Of a stretch of 10,006 nt of DNA, positions 1-9,954 are shown one piece after another. Location of the stretch: assembly GCA_040005235.1 (NCBI GenBank), contig JBDTZG010000113.1:1-10006 (forward strand), written 5' to 3'. The position numbers and the translations under genes were made by a program. Position 1 is the first letter of the stretch. Each line of letters opens with the position of its first letter. The notes under the pieces are model-generated. The model did not search any database and was not told the DNA's origin. It was given only the letters and a program-made list of their open reading frames with translations. The stretch is from Acidobacteriota bacterium (GTDB lineage Bacteria > Acidobacteriota > Thermoanaerobaculia > Multivoradales > UBA5704).

Positions 1-57
1 GGGATCTGTCGTCGTGGCCCGGACGGGGGGATTTCGCTCTCTGCCTGAAAGCCTTCC

Positions 58-70
58 ATGAGAAGGCCAA
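58..70. repeat. Right subterminal inverted repeat of the IS (atgagaaggccaa)
   Basis: Exact reverse complement of 1484-1496. Confidence 0.92.
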
Positions 71-74
71 CTTG

Positions 75-80
75 TGTCAA
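75..80 (-). promoter_or_regulatory. Outward-facing -35 box (TTGACA) just inside the IS right end, part of a predicted circle-junction promoter
   Basis: Perfect TTGACA on the minus strand, 17 nt before the outer edge of the IR. This is the position expected for IS1111-type junction promoters. Confidence 0.65.
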
Positions 81-96
81 GCCGCCGCGGCGGCTT
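79..96. terminator. Perfect 18-bp GC-rich palindrome (aagccgccgcggcggctt); possible terminator or 3' boundary of the IS RNA
   Basis: Self-complementary sequence between the guide-containing region and the right IR. It has only short T tails, so terminator function is uncertain. Confidence 0.4.
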
Positions 97-99
97 TCC

Positions 100-290
100 C
101 TACAATCTGTTCTCGGCTGAGAGCGGCTCCCCAAGCTTCCATTCGCACTGTCAGTGGACCGGTTCTGGGTCCCGTGCACGATGGGGTCCACCCCGCTGGG
201 CCCGACAATCTCGCTCTCGACCTTGAAGGCCAGGGGATCTGTCGTCGTGGCCCGGACGGGGGGATTTCGCTCTCTGCCTGAAAGCCTTTC
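100..290 (-). ncRNA. Putative bridge/seek RNA of the IS1111-type element (boundaries approximate)
   Basis: Non-coding region between the transposase stop and the right IR. It contains a match to the left target flank (208-219 = 1500-1511), a match to the right IS end (136-142 = 53-59), the complement of the left IS end (180-185) and the complement of the predicted right target half (233-240). These lie in internal loops of stems folded by hand. Confidence 0.8.
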
Positions 291-310
291 TTCGATCCTT
301 CGGAGCGGGC

Positions 311-1408
311 TTATGCTGCCTGCGCCAGGGGCCTCGCGTGCGCCGTTTTCCTTACCTGCTCCGTTCGTTTCGCTTGGTAGAACGGGTCGTACTCGGCCTG
401 GCCGGACCACAGGCGGTGCAACAGAACCGCAAGCCTGCGGGCCACCGCGATCACCGCCCGTTTCTTCGCCGCCCGCCCGCCGCGTTGCACCAGCGCCAGA
501 CCGTAGCGCCGCAGGTCGCAGTCCTTCCCGAACGGACCCAGGATGTACTGCGCCGATTGCACCAACAGACAGCGCAGCATCTCGTCGCCGCGGTGCGTGA
601 TGCCTTTTTCCTTCGAGGTCGCTCCCGACCGATCGCTGCTCGGCGCCAGCCCCACGTAGCCTCCCACCAGCCGGGAGCGCGCAAAGCGCTGCGGATTCTC
701 GATCGTCGCCACGAAGGCCAGGGAGGTGACAGGACCCACTCCGTTGACCTGCCGCAGCAGCGTCGCCGCAGGCTCCCTGCGGCCCACCTGCTCGACCTGC
801 CGATCGTACCGAGTCACCTCGGTGGCCAAAGTCTCGATGAGCTCCAAGAGCGGCTGCAGGATCGCCTTGAAGTCCTCGGGAACCTCGTCCTGGCAGCGAC
901 GCGCCCAACCGGCGCTCGTGCCCCGGGTCACGGGCTGTCCTCGTTTCTTCATCGTGCTGCGCACGTGATTGACGATCTTGGTGCGTATCTGGACCAGCAA
1001 CCCGCGCGTTTGCAACAGCGCCCGCTGCAGCTCGGCCCCTTCGCCGCGCAGCGTCACCGGCGACAGCAGCTTGGGATCCGCCAAAGCCAGGCGCGCCAAC
1101 AGCTGAGCGTCGACCCGGTCGCTCTTCTTGTGACCGTGCGAGATCAGACGCACCTGCCGGGGATTGGCAACGATCACTTCGTGACCCCAGGCGGAGAGCT
1201 GGCGAGCGATCCAGCTCGACTGCGGCCCGGCCTCCAGCGCGATGCGCACGGGACCCGTCCCGGAGAAGCGATGCTCCAACCCGGCGCGACCCGTCAGGAT
1301 CTTGCCGCTTTCGACCTCCTCGCCCTTGGCATCGAGACCACAGAGATGAATCCATCGATCCCCCAGATCCAGGCCCACCACCACCGGAGTTTTGGTAATC
1401 TTCGCCAT
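311..1408 (-). CDS. IS110-family transposase / RNA-guided bridge recombinase (365 aa)
   Basis: N-terminal RuvC-like DEDD motifs (VGLDLG, ALEAG, KKSDRVDA), VNGVGPVTS helix-hairpin-helix, and C-terminal catalytic Ser motif GLAPSSDRSG followed by GDEMLRCLL and AVIAVARRL. ATG at 1408 is preceded by a GGGAG RBS and is preferred over TTG at 1414. Confidence 0.96.
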   Translation of the reverse strand: MAKITKTPVVVGLDLGDRWIHLCGLDAKGEEVESGKILTGRAGLEHRFSGTGPVRIALEAGPQSSWIARQLSAWGHEVIVANPRQVRLISHGHKKSDRVDAQLLARLALADPKLLSPVTLRGEGAELQRALLQTRGLLVQIRTKIVNHVRSTMKKRGQPVTRGTSAGWARRCQDEVPEDFKAILQPLLELIETLATEVTRYDRQVEQVGRREPAATLLRQVNGVGPVTSLAFVATIENPQRFARSRLVGGYVGLAPSSDRSGATSKEKGITHRGDEMLRCLLVQSAQYILGPFGKDCDLRRYGLALVQRGGRAAKKRAVIAVARRLAVLLHRLWSGQAEYDPFYQAKRTEQVRKTAHARPLAQAA

Positions 1409-1483: not shown

Positions 1484-1496
1484 TTGGCCTTCTCAT
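1484..1496. repeat. Left subterminal inverted repeat of the IS (ttggccttctcat)
   Basis: Exact reverse complement of 58-70, located about 75 nt upstream of the transposase start. Confidence 0.92.
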
Positions 1497-1501
1497 CCCA
1501 T

Positions 1502-1522
1502 CTCGCTCTCGCTCGGGATGAC
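1502..1522 (-). repeat. Left half of a REP-like palindrome (GTCATCCCGAGCGAGAGCGAG) interrupted by the IS
   Basis: Resembles the GTCATCC(C/T)GAGC..GCGA(A/G)GGATCT class of extragenic palindromes, as recalled rather than searched. The ATCCC arm lacks its GGGAT partner because the IS begins exactly there. It is intergenic, downstream of the helicase. Confidence 0.6.
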
Positions 1523-1587
1523 GAGGGGGGAGGACGGCTCGGTTTGTGTGTGTGTGGGGCTTGCCGACGCTGGAGGGGGGAAACGAC

Positions 1588-2793
1588 TTACCGCAACATC
1601 CGCCGTCGGATCGTCGTTTTCGGCTTGAGCTCCACCCACGGTTCCACCCCGGGCAGGGTGCAGCGGGGGATCTCAAAGCCCAGTACGCCTTCTACCTCTT
1701 TGATCGTCGGCTTGTCTTGCCAGGTGACGATCGAAGAGACCAGGCCAAGCATCGCTCCGCGGCCGGTTCGGCCGGCTCGGTGGATGTAGTCGTCGACTTT
1801 CTCGGGCAGGTCGAAGTGGATGACGTGCTCGATTTCCGGGATGTCGATGCCGCGGCCTGCCACTCCGGTGGCGACAAGGATGCGGGTCTTGCCTTCGCGG
1901 AAGCTCTTCAGCTCGAGGACGCGCTGGCCTTGGGTCAGGTCGGCGTGGATTCTTCCGACGCTGAAGCCTTCGCGTTCCAGGACCGAGGTCAGCCATTCGG
2001 CGTCGCTCTTTCGGCGGATGAAGATCAGCGTCCGACCGAGGTTCACGTGGAGCAGCGCGTGGAGGCAGGCTTTCTTGTCCTCGTCCGCCACCATGTAGAG
2101 CCGGTGGGTGAGGCCCGTGGCCGCGCCGCCTTCGGGCAGGATGTCCACCCGCAGCGGATCGGAGAGGAACATCTTGGTCAGGCGCTCGATCGGCGGCGGC
2201 ATGGTGGCCGAGAAGAGCATCGTGTGACGCTCCTTCGGCAGCAGGGAGAGGATCTCCTGCACCTGCGGCAGAAAGCCGAGATCGAGCATGTGGTCGGCTT
2301 CGTCGAGCACCAGCTCTTCGATCGCGTCGAGCTTGAGCGTTCGGCGCTCGATGTGGTCGAGCAGGCGGCCCGGGGTCGCGACCACCACGTCGGGACCGCG
2401 TTTCAGCGCTTCGAACTGCGGTCCCATGCGGACGCCGCCGATCAGGCAGGCGGTGTCGAGGTGCCGGTCCTGGCCGAACAGGTCCATGAACGCCTTGGTC
2501 TGGAGCGCCAGCTCCCGCGTGGGCGAGAGGATCAGACCGCGCAAGCCCTTGCCGTGCGAGAGCCTTTCCGCGAGCGGTAGGCTGAACGCGGCGGTCTTGC
2601 CCGAGCCGGTGGCGGCGAGGCCGATCAGGTCGCGTCCGGCGAGCGCGAGCGGGATCACTTCGGACTGAATCGGGGTCGGATACTGGAATCCGATCTGCTC
2701 GATGATCTTGAGGATCGGAGGGGAGAGCCCCAGGGACGAAAATGGCTTGTCGGTGGTGGCTACGGGATGTTGGGGTATGGCGAAACTCTGCAT
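1588..2793 (-). CDS. DEAD-box ATP-dependent RNA helicase (RhlE-like, minimal core)
   Basis: Q motif (GFQYPTPIQ), AATGSGKT, PTRELA, TPGRL, DEAD, SAT, RGIDI and HRAGRTGR. The start is uncertain (ATG at 2793 chosen; the ORF is open to 2814). Confidence 0.95.
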   Translation of the reverse strand: MQSFAIPQHPVATTDKPFSSLGLSPPILKIIEQIGFQYPTPIQSEVIPLALAGRDLIGLAATGSGKTAAFSLPLAERLSHGKGLRGLILSPTRELALQTKAFMDLFGQDRHLDTACLIGGVRMGPQFEALKRGPDVVVATPGRLLDHIERRTLKLDAIEELVLDEADHMLDLGFLPQVQEILSLLPKERHTMLFSATMPPPIERLTKMFLSDPLRVDILPEGGAATGLTHRLYMVADEDKKACLHALLHVNLGRTLIFIRRKSDAEWLTSVLEREGFSVGRIHADLTQGQRVLELKSFREGKTRILVATGVAGRGIDIPEIEHVIHFDLPEKVDDYIHRAGRTGRGAMLGLVSSIVTWQDKPTIKEVEGVLGFEIPRCTLPGVEPWVELKPKTTIRRRMLR

Positions 2794-2911
2794 TCGAGGC
2801 CATTTATAGAACAAATCGGTCGATCCGACAAGGAACCGGCAGACGCTCCGACAGCCAGCCCCCGGTCCTGTTTTGGGTTCGGTACCGGAGCGTCTCTACC
2901 GTCCCCAGGGC

Positions 2912-2917
2912 TATACT
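2912..2917 (+). promoter_or_regulatory. Candidate -10 element (TATACT) for the GNAT-aminotransferase operon
   Basis: TATACT in a GC-rich divergent intergenic region, 11 nt before ATG 2929. No clear -35 or SD sequence. Confidence 0.4.
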
Positions 2918-2928
2918 CAATGCCTGCC

Positions 2929-3492
2929 ATGAGCCTGATCGCCGCTCCGCCCGGTGTGATCTGGAAGCGCCTGACCGAGCCTTGGGAGCTCGATCAGGTG
3001 TATCGGCTCAACCACCGAACCTTCGCCGAAGAGATCCCGCAACATGCCGAACGGCCCGACCGCCGCCTGGTCGATGCCCGCTTGGCCGACAGCATCGCGT
3101 TCGTCGCTTTGGCGGAAGAGCGGGTGGTGGGGATGGTGGCGGTCTGCTCGAAGCGGCCGTTTTCGCTCGATAGTAAGGTGCCGGATCTCGACTCGTACCT
3201 GCCACACCACGTCCGGGCTTGCGAAGTCCGGCTGCTCTGCGTCGAGCCAGAACGGCGGCAAGGCGCGGTGTTCGGCGGGCTGCTGGGCTGCGTGATCGAG
3301 TACGGCCGGTCCGAGGGGGTCGATCTGGCGGTGATCTCCGGCACCGAGCGGCAGGCGAAGCTGTACCGTCATCTCGGGTTCCAGGCGTTCGGGCCGCCGA
3401 TCGGCACGCCCGAGGCTCCCTATCGGGCCATGTACGTCACTTGGGATGACCTGACGCCTTCGGCCAAGAAGCTCGGAGAAGGGGCGCCGTGA
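2929..3492 (+). CDS. GNAT-fold N-acyltransferase (N-acyl amino acid synthase / FeeM-like)
   Basis: ELDQVYRLNHRTFAEEIPQH N-terminal motif, CEVRLLCVEPERRQG acyl-donor-binding motif A, and LYRHLGF motif B. Start is ATG 2929 or 2920; the ORF-track start at 2767 overlaps the divergent helicase. Confidence 0.85.
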   Translation: MSLIAAPPGVIWKRLTEPWELDQVYRLNHRTFAEEIPQHAERPDRRLVDARLADSIAFVALAEERVVGMVAVCSKRPFSLDSKVPDLDSYLPHHVRACEVRLLCVEPERRQGAVFGGLLGCVIEYGRSEGVDLAVISGTERQAKLYRHLGFQAFGPPIGTPEAPYRAMYVTWDDLTPSAKKLGEGAP

Positions 3493-4586
3493 GCGACGTC
3501 TTGGACGACCGCGTCTCGTTTCTTCCAGGTCCCGTGCCGATGCACCCGGAGGTTTCGCGGGCGTTCGCCGGTCCGGCGATCTCCCATCGTTCCGCCGCGT
3601 TCCACGCGCAGATGGCCGAGGTGAAGAGGCGCCTTTGCGATCTCGTCGGCCTGCCGAACGTGCAGCTGCTGGTGGGTTCCGGCACGCTTGCCAACGATGC
3701 CGTCGGCGCCCAGTTGTCGCTCCTGACCGGGCGCGGCCTGGTGCTTTCGAACGGCGAATTCGGCGAGCGGCTGATCGAGCAGGCCGGCCGGTTCGGTCTC
3801 GCCTTCACCCCCTTGCGCTCCGAGTGGGGCGAGCCGTTGCCGCTCGACGAGGCGTCGCGGACCGTGGAGCCGATCGAATGGATCTGGGCGGTCCATTGCG
3901 AAACTTCGACCGGCGTATTGAACGACCTTTCCCGATTGGCGGATCTCGCTCGCGAGCGGGGGGCGAAACTCTGCGTCGATGCGATCAGCTCGGTGGGAAA
4001 CACCTCCGTCGACCTCTCCAATGCCTGGCTCGCGACCGCCACGTCGGGAAAGGGCCTCGCCGCGTATCCGGGTTTAGGTTTGGTGTTCCATCGAGAGGAG
4101 ATCGCGCCGTCTTCACGGCTGCCGCGCTATCTCGATCTGGGGCTCTGGGCGCGCGAGGACGGGGTGCCGTTTACCGCGTCGTCCAATCTGCTTGCGGCGC
4201 TTGGGTCTGCGCTGGAGATCGGCGGCAGGGAGGACGGACGGCGCGCGCGGCTGGCCGCCGATCTTCGACCGCGGATCGAGCGGATGGGATTTTCTTGCCT
4301 GGCGCCGGTGGAAACCGCGGCGCCCTGGGTTCTCACGCTGATCCCCCCCGACGGGACGAGCGCCTTCGCTCTCGGCGAGCGACTGGAGGCGGAGGGGTTC
4401 CTGCTCTCCTACCGCAGTGGCTACCTGGTGCGGCGCAACTGGCTCCAGATCTGCTGGATGGGGGAGCACGCCCCCGCGGCGCTCGACGCCCTGCTCGACG
4501 CTTTACGCGAGGCTTTGCGCGACGCTTTACGCGATAAACCGACGGCCGCCTTCGAACCGTCGGCCGTGCTTCAGGCGCCCGAATAG
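3489..4586 (+). CDS. PLP-dependent aminotransferase class V (serine-pyruvate / 2-AEP transaminase-like fold)
   Basis: FLPGP, GSGT, NGEFGER, VHCETSTG, VDAISS, and the Schiff-base Lys in SGKGL. GTG start overlaps the GNAT stop (GTGA at 3489-3492). Confidence 0.92.
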   Translation: MSDVLDDRVSFLPGPVPMHPEVSRAFAGPAISHRSAAFHAQMAEVKRRLCDLVGLPNVQLLVGSGTLANDAVGAQLSLLTGRGLVLSNGEFGERLIEQAGRFGLAFTPLRSEWGEPLPLDEASRTVEPIEWIWAVHCETSTGVLNDLSRLADLARERGAKLCVDAISSVGNTSVDLSNAWLATATSGKGLAAYPGLGLVFHREEIAPSSRLPRYLDLGLWAREDGVPFTASSNLLAALGSALEIGGREDGRRARLAADLRPRIERMGFSCLAPVETAAPWVLTLIPPDGTSAFALGERLEAEGFLLSYRSGYLVRRNWLQICWMGEHAPAALDALLDALREALRDALRDKPTAAFEPSAVLQAPE

Positions 4587-4672
4587 CCGGCGGTCGACGC
4601 ACCCCAGGCCGCCGCACTGTCAAACGCGCCGCTGATAGAGTCGCCCGGCCCGTTTTCTCGGAGGTACACCGC

Positions 4673-7255
4673 TTGGTCCGACGCCTTTTTCCGTCCCTCG
4701 CTCCCGCCGCCGTTCTTCTCTCCGTGCTGTGGGGCGGCGCCTGCGCCACCGCGGCGCCTTCGACCCGGCCAGCTCCTCCCGCGACCCCCGCGGCAGTTCC
4801 TCCTGCCTCGCCCGTCGCCGCCAAGATCGCCGGCCTTGATCCTCGCGCGGGCCTGCTCGACCTCTATCTCGACAAGAAGACGGGCAAGGTCTGGCTCGTG
4901 CTGCCCGCTCCCAGCGGTCCGGGAGGCCGGGTCGGCAGCTATCTCTATGTCGAATCGCTCGGCTCGGGGCTCGGCTCGAATCCGGTCGGCCTCGATCGCG
5001 GCCAGGTCTCGGACGCCCAGATTTTGGACATCCGGCGCGTCGGCGGGCGGATCCTGTTCGAGCTGCCGAACTATCAGTTCCGCGCCGGGGCTCGCGTCCC
5101 TTCCGACAACGCGGCGGAACGGCGGGCGGTCGCCGAGTCATTCGCCACTTCGGTGCTCTGGGCCGCGCCGATCGAAGCGGAAGATCCCGACGGCCGGGTG
5201 TTGATCGACCTCACCGGCTTCCTGGTGCGCGACTCGCACGGCGCGGCAGCCTCGATGGCGGCGGCACGGCAAGGCTCCTGGTCGCTCGATGCGGGGCGCA
5301 GCGCGGTCGATCTCGACGGCTGCAAGGCGTTTCCCAAGAACGTCGAGCTGACCGCGCTGCTGACCTTCCAATCGAGTGCGGCGGGCCAGCTCGTGCGCGA
5401 GGTGGCCCCCGGCTCGCCGGGGGATCGCGCCGTCACTCTCACCGCCCACCAGTCTCTGGTCGCCCTTCCGGATGCGGGGTTTCGGCCGCGCAAATTCGAT
5501 CCCCGGATGGGCCATTTCGCGGTCGGCTTCTTCGACTTCGCCGTGCCGCTTGGGAGCCCGCTTGAAGGCAACTTCGCCGCCCGCCACCGGCTGCAGAAGA
5601 TCGACCCGGCCGCGGCGCGCTCGAAGGTGAAAGAGCCGCTCGTCTACTACGTCGACAACGGCGCGCCGGAACCCGTGCGGAGTGCTCTGGTCGAAGGAGC
5701 GAGCTGGTGGAAGGAGGCGTTTGAGGCGGCGGGATTCATCGACGGGTTCCGGGTCGAAGTGCTGCCCGAGGGCATCGATCCGCTCGACGCGCGCTACAAC
5801 GTGGTCCAGTGGGTCCACCGCTCGACCCGCGGCTGGTCGTATGGCGGCGGCGCGATCGACCCGCGCACGGGAGAGATGATCAACGGCCACGTCCTGCTCG
5901 GCTCGCAGCGGGTGCGTCAGGACCGGCTGCTGTTCGAGGGTCTGATCGGCGCCTCGGGCACCGGAAGCGGCGGGGCCGCCGATCCGATCCAGCTGTCGCT
6001 CGCCCGCATCCGCCAGCTCGCGGCGCACGAGGTCGGCCACTCCTTGGGGTTGTCGCACAACTTCGCCGCCTCGACCTACGGCCGGGCTTCGGTGATGGAC
6101 TACCCGGCGCCGCTGGTGAAGGTGACCTCCGGAGGCGATATCGATCTTTCCGAAGCCTACGCGAAGGGGATTGGCGCCTGGGACATTCAGGCGATCAAGT
6201 ACCTCTACTCGGAGTTTACGTCCGAGCAGGAGGACGCGGGGCTTGGGCAAATCGTCGCCGAGACGCTCTCGCGCGGCATGCTCTATCTGTCGGACCAGGA
6301 CGCGCGACCCTTAAGCTCGTCCCACCCGCTCGCGAACCTCTGGGACAACGGCGCCGATCCGATCGCCGGCCTGGAAAATGCGGTGAAGGTGCGGCGGATC
6401 GCTCTCGCGCATTTCGGCCTCGGCAACCTCGGCGCCGACCGGCCGCTCGCCCTGCTCAACGACGTCCTCGCCCCCGTCTACTTCCACCCCCGCTATCAGC
6501 TCGAAGCGGCGGCGAAAAGCGTCGGCGGCGCCACCTACGAATACGTGATGCCGGGCGACGGCCAGGCTCCCGTTCGGCCGGTGCCGGCCGTCGATCAACG
6601 GCGGGCGCTCGCCGCGGTGCTCTCGGCGATCTCGCCCGCCGAGCTCGATCTGCCGGATTCGATCCTCGCCCTGCTGCCGCCGCGCCCGCCGGAAGTGAGG
6701 GCGTCGGTCGAGACCTTCCGCGGCGACTCCTCTCCGATCTTCGATCCGCTCGGCGCCGCGGCCACCGCGGCGGATTTCGCCCTCGGCGACCTGCTCGCGC
6801 CCGAACGGGCCGCGCGCCTGGTCGATCAGCACCGCCGCGATCCGTCGTTGCCGGGTCTCGAAGAGGTGATGGACAAGATCATCGCCGCGAGTTTTTCCGG
6901 GGGTGGCTCGCCGCGCCTCGCCGAGATCCGGCGCACGGTCGAATCGGTGGCCGTGGCGCGCCTGATCGGCCTCGCGGGAAATCCCGCGGCCACCTCCGGG
7001 GTGAGGGCGCGGGTCGAGGCCGCCCTTTCCACCCTGGCGCGCCGGCCGATCTCGGGAGGCGAGCCGGCCGAGGAGCGCGCGTATTTCGGGCATCTGGTGC
7101 GTGAGATCGAACGGTTCTTCCACCGCGCCGAGGCGCTCGACCGGCCGGTCGAATCGGCGCCGGAGATTCCGCCCGGTCAGCCGATCGGCGGCGGCCAGCC
7201 CGGACTTGGAATGCCGGACGATCTCGACGGCTGCTCGCTCGAAGGGAAGCGCTGA
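4673..7255 (+). CDS. Exported zinc-dependent metalloprotease (metzincin; DUF5117/DUF4953-type), probable lipoprotein
   Basis: HEVGHSLGLSH zinc motif, SVMDY Met-turn, DPRMGHF and IDPRTGE family motifs. Signal peptide ending LWGGAC followed by a Pro/Ala linker. TTG start with a GGAGG RBS at 4660-4664. Confidence 0.92.
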   Translation: MVRRLFPSLAPAAVLLSVLWGGACATAAPSTRPAPPATPAAVPPASPVAAKIAGLDPRAGLLDLYLDKKTGKVWLVLPAPSGPGGRVGSYLYVESLGSGLGSNPVGLDRGQVSDAQILDIRRVGGRILFELPNYQFRAGARVPSDNAAERRAVAESFATSVLWAAPIEAEDPDGRVLIDLTGFLVRDSHGAAASMAAARQGSWSLDAGRSAVDLDGCKAFPKNVELTALLTFQSSAAGQLVREVAPGSPGDRAVTLTAHQSLVALPDAGFRPRKFDPRMGHFAVGFFDFAVPLGSPLEGNFAARHRLQKIDPAAARSKVKEPLVYYVDNGAPEPVRSALVEGASWWKEAFEAAGFIDGFRVEVLPEGIDPLDARYNVVQWVHRSTRGWSYGGGAIDPRTGEMINGHVLLGSQRVRQDRLLFEGLIGASGTGSGGAADPIQLSLARIRQLAAHEVGHSLGLSHNFAASTYGRASVMDYPAPLVKVTSGGDIDLSEAYAKGIGAWDIQAIKYLYSEFTSEQEDAGLGQIVAETLSRGMLYLSDQDARPLSSSHPLANLWDNGADPIAGLENAVKVRRIALAHFGLGNLGADRPLALLNDVLAPVYFHPRYQLEAAAKSVGGATYEYVMPGDGQAPVRPVPAVDQRRALAAVLSAISPAELDLPDSILALLPPRPPEVRASVETFRGDSSPIFDPLGAAATAADFALGDLLAPERAARLVDQHRRDPSLPGLEEVMDKIIAASFSGGGSPRLAEIRRTVESVAVARLIGLAGNPAATSGVRARVEAALSTLARRPISGGEPAEERAYFGHLVREIERFFHRAEALDRPVESAPEIPPGQPIGGGQPGLGMPDDLDGCSLEGKR

Positions 7256-7261
7256 TCCCCC

Positions 7262-8125
7262 ATGGCAAGCCCGTTGGCCCTCTCGCTCGTCCGGGCTCTG
7301 CCGCTGCTGATGCTCTCGGGAACCTGCGCGCCGAGCGCTCCCGGTAAGACAGCGCCCGCGAGCGCTGAGCCCCAGCCCGTAGCGGCGGCCCCTCCGGCCC
7401 CTGCTGCGGTACCCGCTCCCCGGCCGATCGAGCACCTCGGGGTCCACGTGCTCGCAACGCACCCGCACGATGCGGCCTCCTACACCCAGGGGCTGCTCTG
7501 GTACCAGGGGAAGCTCTACGAAAGCGCCGGCCAGTACGGCCGTTCGGACCTGCGCGAGGTCGACCCTACGACCGGCAAGGTGCGCCGCAAAGTGGCGCTG
7601 CCGGGCAACATCTTCGGCGAGGGGCTCGCCCTCGCCGGAACGCGGCTGCTCCAGCTCTCCTGGCGCGAGGGCGTCGCGTTCTCGTGGGATCTGGCGACTT
7701 TCGCCAAAGGGCCGGAGTTTCACTACGCGGGCGAAGGGTGGGGCCTCTGCTACGACGGTAAACGCCTGGTCCGGAGCGACGGCACGGACGTGCTGACCTT
7801 CCACGACCCCACGACGTTTTCCGAGACCGGCCGGCTCTCCGTGCGCCGGGCCGGCCAGCCGGTGTTCTATTTGAACGAGCTGGAATGCGTCGGATCGGAG
7901 GTCTACGCCAACGTCTACCAAACCGACGAGATCGTGCGCATCGATGCCGCGACCGGCGAGGTGACCGCCTCGATCGATGCCTCGGGTCTGATCACCCCCC
8001 AGGAGAGCCTGGCGGGCGCCGAGGTCTTGAACGGCATCGCCTGGAACCCCGAGGAGAAGTTCTTCTACGTCACCGGCAAGCTCTGGCCCAAGATCTTCGA
8101 GGCGCGGTTCGAGAAGCCGCATTGA
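7262..8125 (+). CDS. Glutaminyl-peptide cyclotransferase (plant/bacterial beta-propeller type), exported
   Basis: HPHD...YTQGL, FGEGL, GEGWGL, LNELE, VLNGIA and VTGKLWP motifs. N-terminal hydrophobic signal with Cys plus a Pro/Ala linker. Starts 6 nt after the protease stop. Confidence 0.93.
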   Translation: MASPLALSLVRALPLLMLSGTCAPSAPGKTAPASAEPQPVAAAPPAPAAVPAPRPIEHLGVHVLATHPHDAASYTQGLLWYQGKLYESAGQYGRSDLREVDPTTGKVRRKVALPGNIFGEGLALAGTRLLQLSWREGVAFSWDLATFAKGPEFHYAGEGWGLCYDGKRLVRSDGTDVLTFHDPTTFSETGRLSVRRAGQPVFYLNELECVGSEVYANVYQTDEIVRIDAATGEVTASIDASGLITPQESLAGAEVLNGIAWNPEEKFFYVTGKLWPKIFEARFEKPH

Positions 8126-8151
8126 CAAGGCCGCTCGATGCGCTTTAGCGT
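8122..8151 (+). promoter_or_regulatory. Candidate sigma70 promoter for yegP (TTGACA-18 nt-TAGCGT)
   Basis: Perfect -35 overlapping the upstream stop codon, TAnnnT -10 at 8146-8151, and a GAGGAG RBS at 8170-8175. Confidence 0.55.
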
Positions 8152-8184
8152 CGAGCTCCACTTCTTTCCGAGGAGGAGACCGCG

Positions 8185-8517
8185 ATGTCCGGTTGGTTCG
8201 AGCTCAGCAAGAGCAAAGACGGTCAGTTTCGTTTCGTGTTGAAGGCGGGCAACGGAGAGATCATCCTTACCAGCGAGCTGTACCGGTCGCGCTCCTCGGC
8301 GGCCAAGGGCATCGCGTCGGTGCAAAAAAACAGCGGCAACGACAAGCGCTTCGTCCAGAAGACCTCCAGCAACGGCAAGCCCTATTTCAACCTCCGGGCC
8401 GGCAACCATCAGGTGATCGGCACGAGCGAGATGTATTCCTCGCCCGGAGCTTGCGAGAACGGCATCGCCTCGGTCAAGACGAACGGTTCGAGCACGACGG
8501 TCAAGAATCACGCCTGA
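8185..8517 (+). CDS. yegP: YegP family protein (UPF0339, tandem DUF1508)
   Basis: 110 aa with two internal repeats (FRFVLKAGNGEIILTSELY / YFNLRAGNHQVIGTSEMY ... GIASV) and a strong RBS. Confidence 0.93.
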   Translation: MSGWFELSKSKDGQFRFVLKAGNGEIILTSELYRSRSSAAKGIASVQKNSGNDKRFVQKTSSNGKPYFNLRAGNHQVIGTSEMYSSPGACENGIASVKTNGSSTTVKNHA

Positions 8518-8574
8518 GGCGCCGCGCAGAGGAAATCGGCACCAGGATTGGCGCCGGTCGGTCCGTACGGATCG

Positions 8575-9954
8575 CTACATTGCGCCGGCCGGCGCCTTGA
8601 GTTCGTTCGCCCGAATCTCCCGCTTCCACAGCTCGCTGCCCTGGGCGTCGATCGCGCGCAGCGTTAGCACCCGGTCCTCGGGCGGGCCGGTGACGTCGAG
8701 CAGGCCGAAGCTGCGACGGTCGGTGACCCAGGTACCGGGCACGCGCGATGGATTGCTCGTCTCTTTGTCGGTCGAGGAAACCATGCTCGAAGTGAGCGGG
8801 CTCGAAGTGAATTCATAGAAAGGATACAGACCCGGCACGTCGATCTTGAGCAGCTCGGATTCGTGGCGGTCGCCGGTTAAAAAGACCAGCCCGGGGATCT
8901 TCGCCTTGACCAGGAAATCGCGCAGCTCGTTCTGTTCCGCCGGATAGCGGCCGAGCGCCTCGTAGAACGCGAGCGGATTCCACATCTGGTTGCCGGAGGC
9001 AACGATCTTGAACGTGGCGTCGGAGGAGACCAATGCCTCTTCGAGCCAGCGCAGCTGTTCTTTTCCGAACATCCGCTTCGAGGCGTCGTCGGGGAAGTTG
9101 TCCGGCGTCCGGTAGTAACGGTCGTCGAGCAGGAAGAATTCGACGTCGCCCCACATGAATCGGCCGAACACGCCGGGGATCTCGGCGGTGCCGTACTGGG
9201 GGTTCGCCCAATAGTCGCGAAACACGCGCAACGAGGTTTCGCGGCCGGAAAACGAGCGGTCCGAATCGTTCGGGCCAAAGTCGTGGTCGTCCCAGATCGC
9301 GTACTGGTGGACCGAGCCGAACAGCGGCTGAAGCTCCGGAATCGACCGGTCGCGCGCCCAGCGGCGGCGCATTCCTTCTTCGGTGCCCACGTCGGATTCG
9401 CGGTAGTAGATGTCGTCGCCCAGCCAGAGCATCAGGTCGGGCTTCTGGGCCAGGATCGCGTTGAAGATCTCGTAGCCCCCGCCGTACTCAGGCCCCGGTC
9501 GATCCGCCGCGGGATCGTTGATGTAGGCGCACGAGCCGAACGCCGCCCGCAGGTCGGGCGCCGGGGTGCGCCAGCGCCAGATCTCCTGGGTCTTGAACGC
9601 GGTGGCGTAGGGCAGCCCCACCCGCCGGCCGTCGACATAGACCTCGTATTCGTACTTGACCCCCGGAACCAGGTTGACCAAACGGAACCGCGCGATCCGG
9701 TCGCCCTCGTCGGTGGTCGCGATCTCGTGCGACAGCCGGGAAGAGACCTCCGCCCCGGCGAGCCAAAATCGCAGCTGCGCCCGCGCGGGCTGCTTGGTTT
9801 GAAGCCAAAGCTCGACTTCGCCCACGTCGGACAGGCCGACCATCGGACCGCCAAGGATCGGCGACACCGCTCCGTCTTCGTGGGCGAAGAGATGCGAGGG
9901 AACGGCGAGGGCGAGGAGGAGGGCGAACGGAACGACGCGGAACGAGGGGCGCAT
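8575..9954 (-). CDS. phoD: PhoD-family alkaline phosphatase / phosphodiesterase, secreted
   Basis: FGSC, LWLGDDIY, IWDDHDFG, LLDDRYYR and LTGDRH metal-ligand motifs, an N-terminal beta-sandwich domain, and a signal peptide. Confidence 0.9.
   Translation of the reverse strand: MRPSFRVVPFALLLALAVPSHLFAHEDGAVSPILGGPMVGLSDVGEVELWLQTKQPARAQLRFWLAGAEVSSRLSHEIATTDEGDRIARFRLVNLVPGVKYEYEVYVDGRRVGLPYATAFKTQEIWRWRTPAPDLRAAFGSCAYINDPAADRPGPEYGGGYEIFNAILAQKPDLMLWLGDDIYYRESDVGTEEGMRRRWARDRSIPELQPLFGSVHQYAIWDDHDFGPNDSDRSFSGRETSLRVFRDYWANPQYGTAEIPGVFGRFMWGDVEFFLLDDRYYRTPDNFPDDASKRMFGKEQLRWLEEALVSSDATFKIVASGNQMWNPLAFYEALGRYPAEQNELRDFLVKAKIPGLVFLTGDRHESELLKIDVPGLYPFYEFTSSPLTSSMVSSTDKETSNPSRVPGTWVTDRRSFGLLDVTGPPEDRVLTLRAIDAQGSELWKREIRANELKAPAGAM

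Follow-up and report, generated by a model that had tools for sequence, protein, structure and literature searches.

A one-sided right-end junction at an IS1111-type element, possibly a minority recombination product, and no evidence for a guide-RNA array

The window analysed here is a 10,006-nucleotide stretch that makes up an entire contig (C38) of a 140-contig, 6.2-Mb genome bin, and its position 1 is the contig end. A complete IS1111-type IS110 element of 1,449 bp lies on the minus strand (1503-55) in a REP-like target and is the only complete IS110 element in the bin. The intact IS110-family recombinase gene (311-1408, minus strand; 365 aa), present in a single copy in the bin, encodes a protein with profile matches to PF01548 (E 3.6e-17) and PF02371 (E 5.3e-18). 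Motifs in this protein place D14, E59, D97, D100 and S261, which we take to be catalytic from labels carried over from IS621. The right subterminal inverted repeat (13 bp; 58-70, minus strand) is a perfect match to the left one (13 bp; 1484-1496, minus strand), whose sequence occurs solely at 1496-1484. Outside these repeats lie a 3-bp right extension (55-57, minus strand) and a 7-bp left extension (1497-1503, minus strand) that contains the left core AG (1503-1502). Beyond the left end, a host DEAD-box helicase gene (1588-2814, minus strand) served as the left-flank anchor for synteny, and positions 2767-9954 carry what are, by eye, presumably ordinary host genes (acetyltransferase-, aminotransferase-, metalloprotease-, glutamine cyclotransferase- and phosphatase-like). 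In PMC11187229, IS1111 elements are defined by 11-13-bp subterminal inverted repeats that are extended by 7 bp on the left and by 3 bp on the right. The element has the DEDD and Transposase_20 domains, the 13-bp subterminal repeats, both extensions, a long non-coding region 3' of tnp with target-complementary segments, and a specific target with no duplication beyond the core; it is an ordinary IS1111 insertion sequence.

The non-coding region and right end together form a 233-bp unit (54-286, minus strand) that comprises the bridge/seek RNA region, a GC hairpin, a TTGACA hexamer and the right inverted repeat, without the left inverted repeat. A GC-rich palindrome (79-96, minus strand) lies ahead of the outward-facing, -35-like TTGACA (75-80, minus strand). 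Four guide-like segments lie inside the unit, and the first-pass annotation was right about this anatomy, having described an IS1111-type element with four guide segments, a -35 and an inverted repeat. A single-sequence fold of the unit is modestly stable (z = -1.97), and a search of Rfam returned two weak matches, below the gathering score and inside the recombinase gene, and none within the unit.

The guide segments were assigned with differing kinds of support (all minus strand). The putative left-donor (LD) guide with core (136-142) is identical to 59-53, and a G/A change in it tracks the right end in a related genome (G013). The putative right-donor (RD) guide (180-185) is complementary to the core G plus the left-end ATGGG, and the putative left-target (LT) guide with core (210-218) is identical to 1510-1502; these two are proposed from complementarity and identity, respectively. 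The right-target (RT) guide (234-241) is complementary to the host right flank and covaries with that flank over 38 elements, namely those of 51 distinct right ends in which the anchor motif was found. Matches of the right-target segment to its own flank averaged 5.68/7 across these related, non-independent elements, as compared to 3.86 +/- 0.16 when permuted (maximum 4.42 in 2000). Within this clade, the right-target segment lies 5' of the left-target segment and the right-donor 5' of the left-donor (window 53-300, alignment A1). The order in IS621 is the reverse. The host target is a REP-like site cut at AG, and its left half lies at 1504-1531 (minus strand). The empty target site was found in run X4 and genome G003 and the filled site in run X2, and unoccupied copies of the target lie on contigs C87, C118 and C121 of the bin.

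On the minus strand, the right end of the element runs directly into the start of its own 3' non-coding region, as the first-pass annotation had reported, and its observation that positions 1-55 are identical to 234-288 was reproduced, at a spacing of 233. The right core AG (54-53) lies within a 4-nt AAGG microhomology (52-55, minus strand), where run X2 has host REP DNA; the internal acceptor site (285-288, minus strand) has its AG at 287-286. AAGG is common to 55-52 and 288-285 and occurs at 12 sites in the element. An earlier placement of the breakpoint exactly at the core therefore stands in that AG is found at 54-53 and 287-286, and is exact only to within these four nucleotides. The junction retains the full left-donor arm, with AG on both sides.

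The flanks of the internal site match the guides at LT 2/7, LD 3/7, RT 2/7 and RD 0/7. For LT and RD combined this is no better than chance, with 88 of the 94 AG sites in the element scoring as well, and for RD alone all 94 do. The internal site is thus unmatched to the guides and the junction is donor-left-only. Guide-directed use of the internal site as a target or as a left junction was considered and rejected on this chance-level match. The TTGACA had also been described as facing a next unit; no new promoter was found between units: no -10 above 3/6 follows TTGACA at the unit junction, and a promoter scan of 1-1600 gave none. The predicted full-circle junction is also weak for a -10, at 3/6.

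The length of the terminal repeat is informative about its origin. Exactly 55 nt of overlap with another contig's start was seen at 134 of 280 contig ends; none overlap by 21, 77, 99, 127 or 141 nt, and two overlap by 33 nt. Eight of the 280 ends loop back on their own contig, and in seven of these the repeat is exactly 55 nt. As overlaps and self-loops alike are mostly of this length, the 55 bp visible at 1-55 (minus strand) represent the graph node, a single k-mer, on which a 233-bp loop closes; there the assembler broke off the contig. The terminal identity is evidence of a junction, not of a second unit. The claim of a second 233-bp unit was therefore not borne out, position 1 being the end of the contig and the repeat length being the assembly k-mer. 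More generally, a terminal repeat equal in length to the assembler's k-mer demonstrates a junction and leaves copy number unaddressed. Five of the seven other self-looping ends lie in sequence that is visibly repetitive by eye, and random loops are accordingly uncommon here. The other self-loops include two that close on an exact 55-mer, one of 6,142 nt on C25 with transposase-like sequence by eye and one of 1,873 nt on C136.

Sequencing runs were compared at the contig level, where contig depth is a rough measure of copy number. None of the 20 runs listed is an RNA run. Runs X1 and X2 account for 0.99 of the sampled words, and the window may come from either one. The element is not covered in X3 or X4, and of 18 small-share runs only the empty site in X4 was used. 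In X2, a 26,199-nt contig of depth 16.9 has no differences from the window over 52-2000 and carries the right end of the element straight into host DNA. Its 30 loose letters match contig C119 exactly and nowhere else in the bin, with a remaining length of 16,681 versus 16,688, and the loci of five of six congeners likewise link the helicase region to C119 sequence. Together, these observations identify C119 as the right flank and show a single cassette in the X2 strain.

In X1, a 5,148-nt record ends at position 259 and a 263-nt record covers 26-288, which is 233 + 30 and corresponds to a closed k=31 loop. The loop is a single sequence with no other letters over 26-288. Its depth is 9.83, about 1x as compared to 10.4 for the element body. 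Simulations using assumed read lengths and Poisson sampling, narrower than real noise, gave a mean loop depth of 19.5 for a fixed duplication, 9.1-11.7 for 0-25% duplicated and 9.1 for zero extra copies. With a fixed duplication, the simulated probability of a depth at or below 9.83 was 0.005 when reads of 150 nt were assumed and under 0.001 with reads of 100 nt; it was 0.065 at 50% duplicated and 0.25 at 25%. Given that contig depth is a poor copy measure, the loop depth disfavours a fixed copy without excluding it. X1 is possibly the source of the window, so its junction is not independent of this assembly.

Neither X1 nor the bin contains an assembled exit from the loop. The first 47 nt of C119 belong to a different IS1111 right end, 84% identical to that of the window element; this foreign end (L151:1-55) is 45/47 identical to the right end of a separate complete element, L036. 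Despite this foreign end, X2 joins the C119 flank to the window's element. The source population may hold a second element between the window element and the flank, or it may be a strain mixture, or C119 may have been misjoined via 25 shared bases. Beside the foreign end, L151:120-649 carries two small adjacent minus-strand genes (106 and 70 aa), which we take to be a PIN-type toxin-antitoxin-like pair.

Related loci were searched for second cassettes. A set of 150 loci, with duplicates and chance matches among them, contained 147 right-end-like sites, of which the window's alone leads into its own upstream sequence. A second donor-loop motif or right end nearby was seen at 0 of 77 related insertion sites, 44 of which have ample flank on both sides; the 77 are insertion sites with the donor-loop motif after removal of the genome's own loci and duplicates. 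Exact right-end matches in the class number 89 in 47 of 401 genomes, or 87 in 46 of 400 without the own genome, and many of the class genomes are short-read bins, which can collapse repeats. Many named carriers of the right-end motif are labelled Acidobacteriota, and the host is probably one as well. No close same-contig pair of right ends was found, the nearest lying 4.9 kb apart among the matches listed, and viral contigs held no relative. In G006, the closest relative (93% over the region), a single cassette leads into REP DNA. A close relative of the element on contig C276 of that genome (L013/L153) retains the last 73 recombinase codons, an intact single non-coding region and the right end at the same REP type. 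Separately, G098, of the same family, has three recombinase-less modules (L155:1358-1635, L166 and L170), of 277 bp from left to right inverted repeat, that carry a guide-RNA-like region at three sites and resemble MITE-like guide carriers with both ends.

These data leave the diversified guide array that the first-pass annotation had proposed, with at least two cassettes, without evidence: X2 has one cassette, the X1 loop stands at about 1x with one unit sequence and no differences, and none of the 77 related sites has a second cassette. The comparisons it had suggested gave the same result. Between units, the guides do not differ, since X1 holds one unit sequence, and among related copies there is neither a second cassette in the 77 sites nor a close pair among the 87 matches. 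Two or more complete units in one molecule are absent from X2 and disfavoured by depth in X1. No title or abstract returned by the literature searches describes a diversified bridge-RNA array, and the parts of 10.64898/2026.10.21.760802 and PMC13626964 available to us add nothing on arrays.

The explanation we favour, to which we assign about an even chance, is a minority one-sided recombinase product of a single-cassette IS1111 element in a REP site, displayed as an assembly loop. In the X1 population, the recombinase-bridge RNA complex would engage the right end through the left-donor guide alone and join it, at the AG core, to a non-cognate AG that lies 233 bp upstream. This would yield either a guide-region partial circle or, in part of the population, a tandem copy; short-read contigs would show the same loop for both. 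The junction would then close a loop in the assembly graph, which the assembler would walk once before stopping, repeating the 55-nt k-mer. The single cassette joined to the host flank in X2 and the X1 loop depth, which fits 0-25% duplicated, are consistent with a minority form. We agree with the first-pass annotation that a recombinase is the likeliest cause, and infer both this origin and the minority status of the junction. Three observations sit less comfortably with a minority recombinase product: the loop exit is unassembled in X1 and the bin, which is odd for a minority form; the foreign right end of C119 means that the source population differs from X2; and the 4-nt microhomology permits a non-recombinase origin.

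That microhomology, at one of the 12 AAGG sites in the element, is also what a library or PCR chimera would use, through a template switch at AAGG, perhaps hairpin-aided beside the element end, that both assemblers kept from the same reads. The junction is present in one of the two runs holding this strain and the loop depth agrees with no additional copy at all (simulated mean 9.1). In JGI metagenome contigs, neither the junction nor the unit start had an exact match (0 for each), which is a weak test because the element itself is also absent there. However, a chimera would have to break at the recombination core of the one IS110 element that is complete in the whole 6.2-Mb bin, and graph cleaning left the junction in place at k=31 as well as at k=55; we consider this origin unlikely, while according it real weight. 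Nested insertion of an identical copy, which the first-pass annotation had already dismissed, was rejected as improbable, as the 5,148-nt X1 record runs unbroken and unbranched through the left end and a single copy is present in the bin. A clonal junction with a partial second copy, in which at least 55 bp of a second unit lead into other DNA, probably a different IS1111 ending in the right end on C119, would account jointly for the missing exit and the foreign end. It would add little depth (about 11.5-13 expected, as estimated from the depth model, compatible with 9.83), and L036 offers a complete element with the 45/47-identical right end in the same kind of REP target. Yet a strain that does not differ from X2 over 52-2000 would have had to undergo two additional events, the non-coding region of L036 begins unlike that of the window element, and its exit is equally invisible. 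A search of 300 genomes of the order, with no positive control, gave no close match to the end region of L036, no other such end was found in the bin, and we regard this explanation as quite improbable.

A fixed tandem duplication of at least two identical 233-bp units in the X1 strain, LD-initiated in place, would belong to a documented class (468 cases in bioRxiv 10.64898/2026.08.14.744561), and the loop is closed and error-free in X1. The simulated depth for two full copies in all cells and the one copy in X2 nonetheless make it highly unlikely. For an array of at least two complete, diverged guide cassettes served by one recombinase, one could cite the junction at the core, the diverged right end (84% identical) that precedes the true right flank in this bin, and the lack of any assembled sequence beyond position 1. 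Set against the single cassette in X2, the variant-free loop sequence, the 0/77 related sites and the 4.9-kb distance of the nearest listed right-end pair, these leave an array only a very slim chance. A specific version, in which the source strain carries its own cassette and then a hybrid second one whose start resembles the first and whose end is the diverged right end of C119, giving two different guide RNAs and one recombinase, is to our minds just as remote.

If the junction was made by the recombinase, it would be a natural case of one-sided IS1111 recombination copying or circularising a whole guide RNA, and a plausible first step to spare guides that could diverge. It would also illustrate once more that the joining of a true end to an unrelated AG is within the reach of bridge recombinases. 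This class of junction is already reported and one unassembled locus adds little to it. CRISPR and TIGR guide arrays place several guides beside one effector. The likeness of the present locus to them is one of idea only, as no multiple or diverged units were found here.

Among IS110 systems, the element itself is no different from the IS1111 family (ISEc11, ISKpn4 and the REP-targeting ISPa11, as covered in PMC11187229), with which it has the DEDD recombinase, repeats, extensions, non-coding region and REP target in common; the extra junction in one sample is the sole difference. CazIS110-1 yields recombinase-made transient tandem repeats, reported in 3 of 96 colonies and reverting (bioRxiv 10.1101/2025.10.25.684509); those repeats span a whole cargo between cognate ends, whereas the unit here is one-sided and sub-element. 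A further parallel is ISPpu9, for which PMC12288879 describes RNA-only minicircles, tandem ssr9 copies in some strains and, with mutated ends, recombination at unexpected AG sites. Both the ISPpu9 module and the present unit are RNA-only IS110 modules in REP sites recombined at AG. Unlike ssr9 (MITEPpu9), which has copies of both end boxes on its two sides and is dispensable for transposition, the 233-bp unit has the right end only, is not flanked by both element ends and contains the guide region.

The junction also matches the expansions and partial circles of bioRxiv 10.64898/2026.08.14.744561, according to which loci have expanded next to IS110 genes through tandem non-coding units in 468 cases, LD-only matches being kept at the unit boundaries. 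The preprint further describes partial circles in which the reuse of element termini is 138- to 300-fold over chance, the other side being at chance level, and which prefer the RD-side terminus. By that preference, an LD-only junction leans to a tandem copy over a circle. By analogy with these descriptions, the present junction belongs to the LD-only class: one boundary reuses a true terminus with the left-donor arm, and the other, without a guide match, is no closer to the donor arm than chance. As in the preprint, whose available text is silent on guide RNAs among the 468 units, the unit is non-coding and adjoins the recombinase gene; here it spans the entire guide-RNA region of a canonical element of 1.45 kb.
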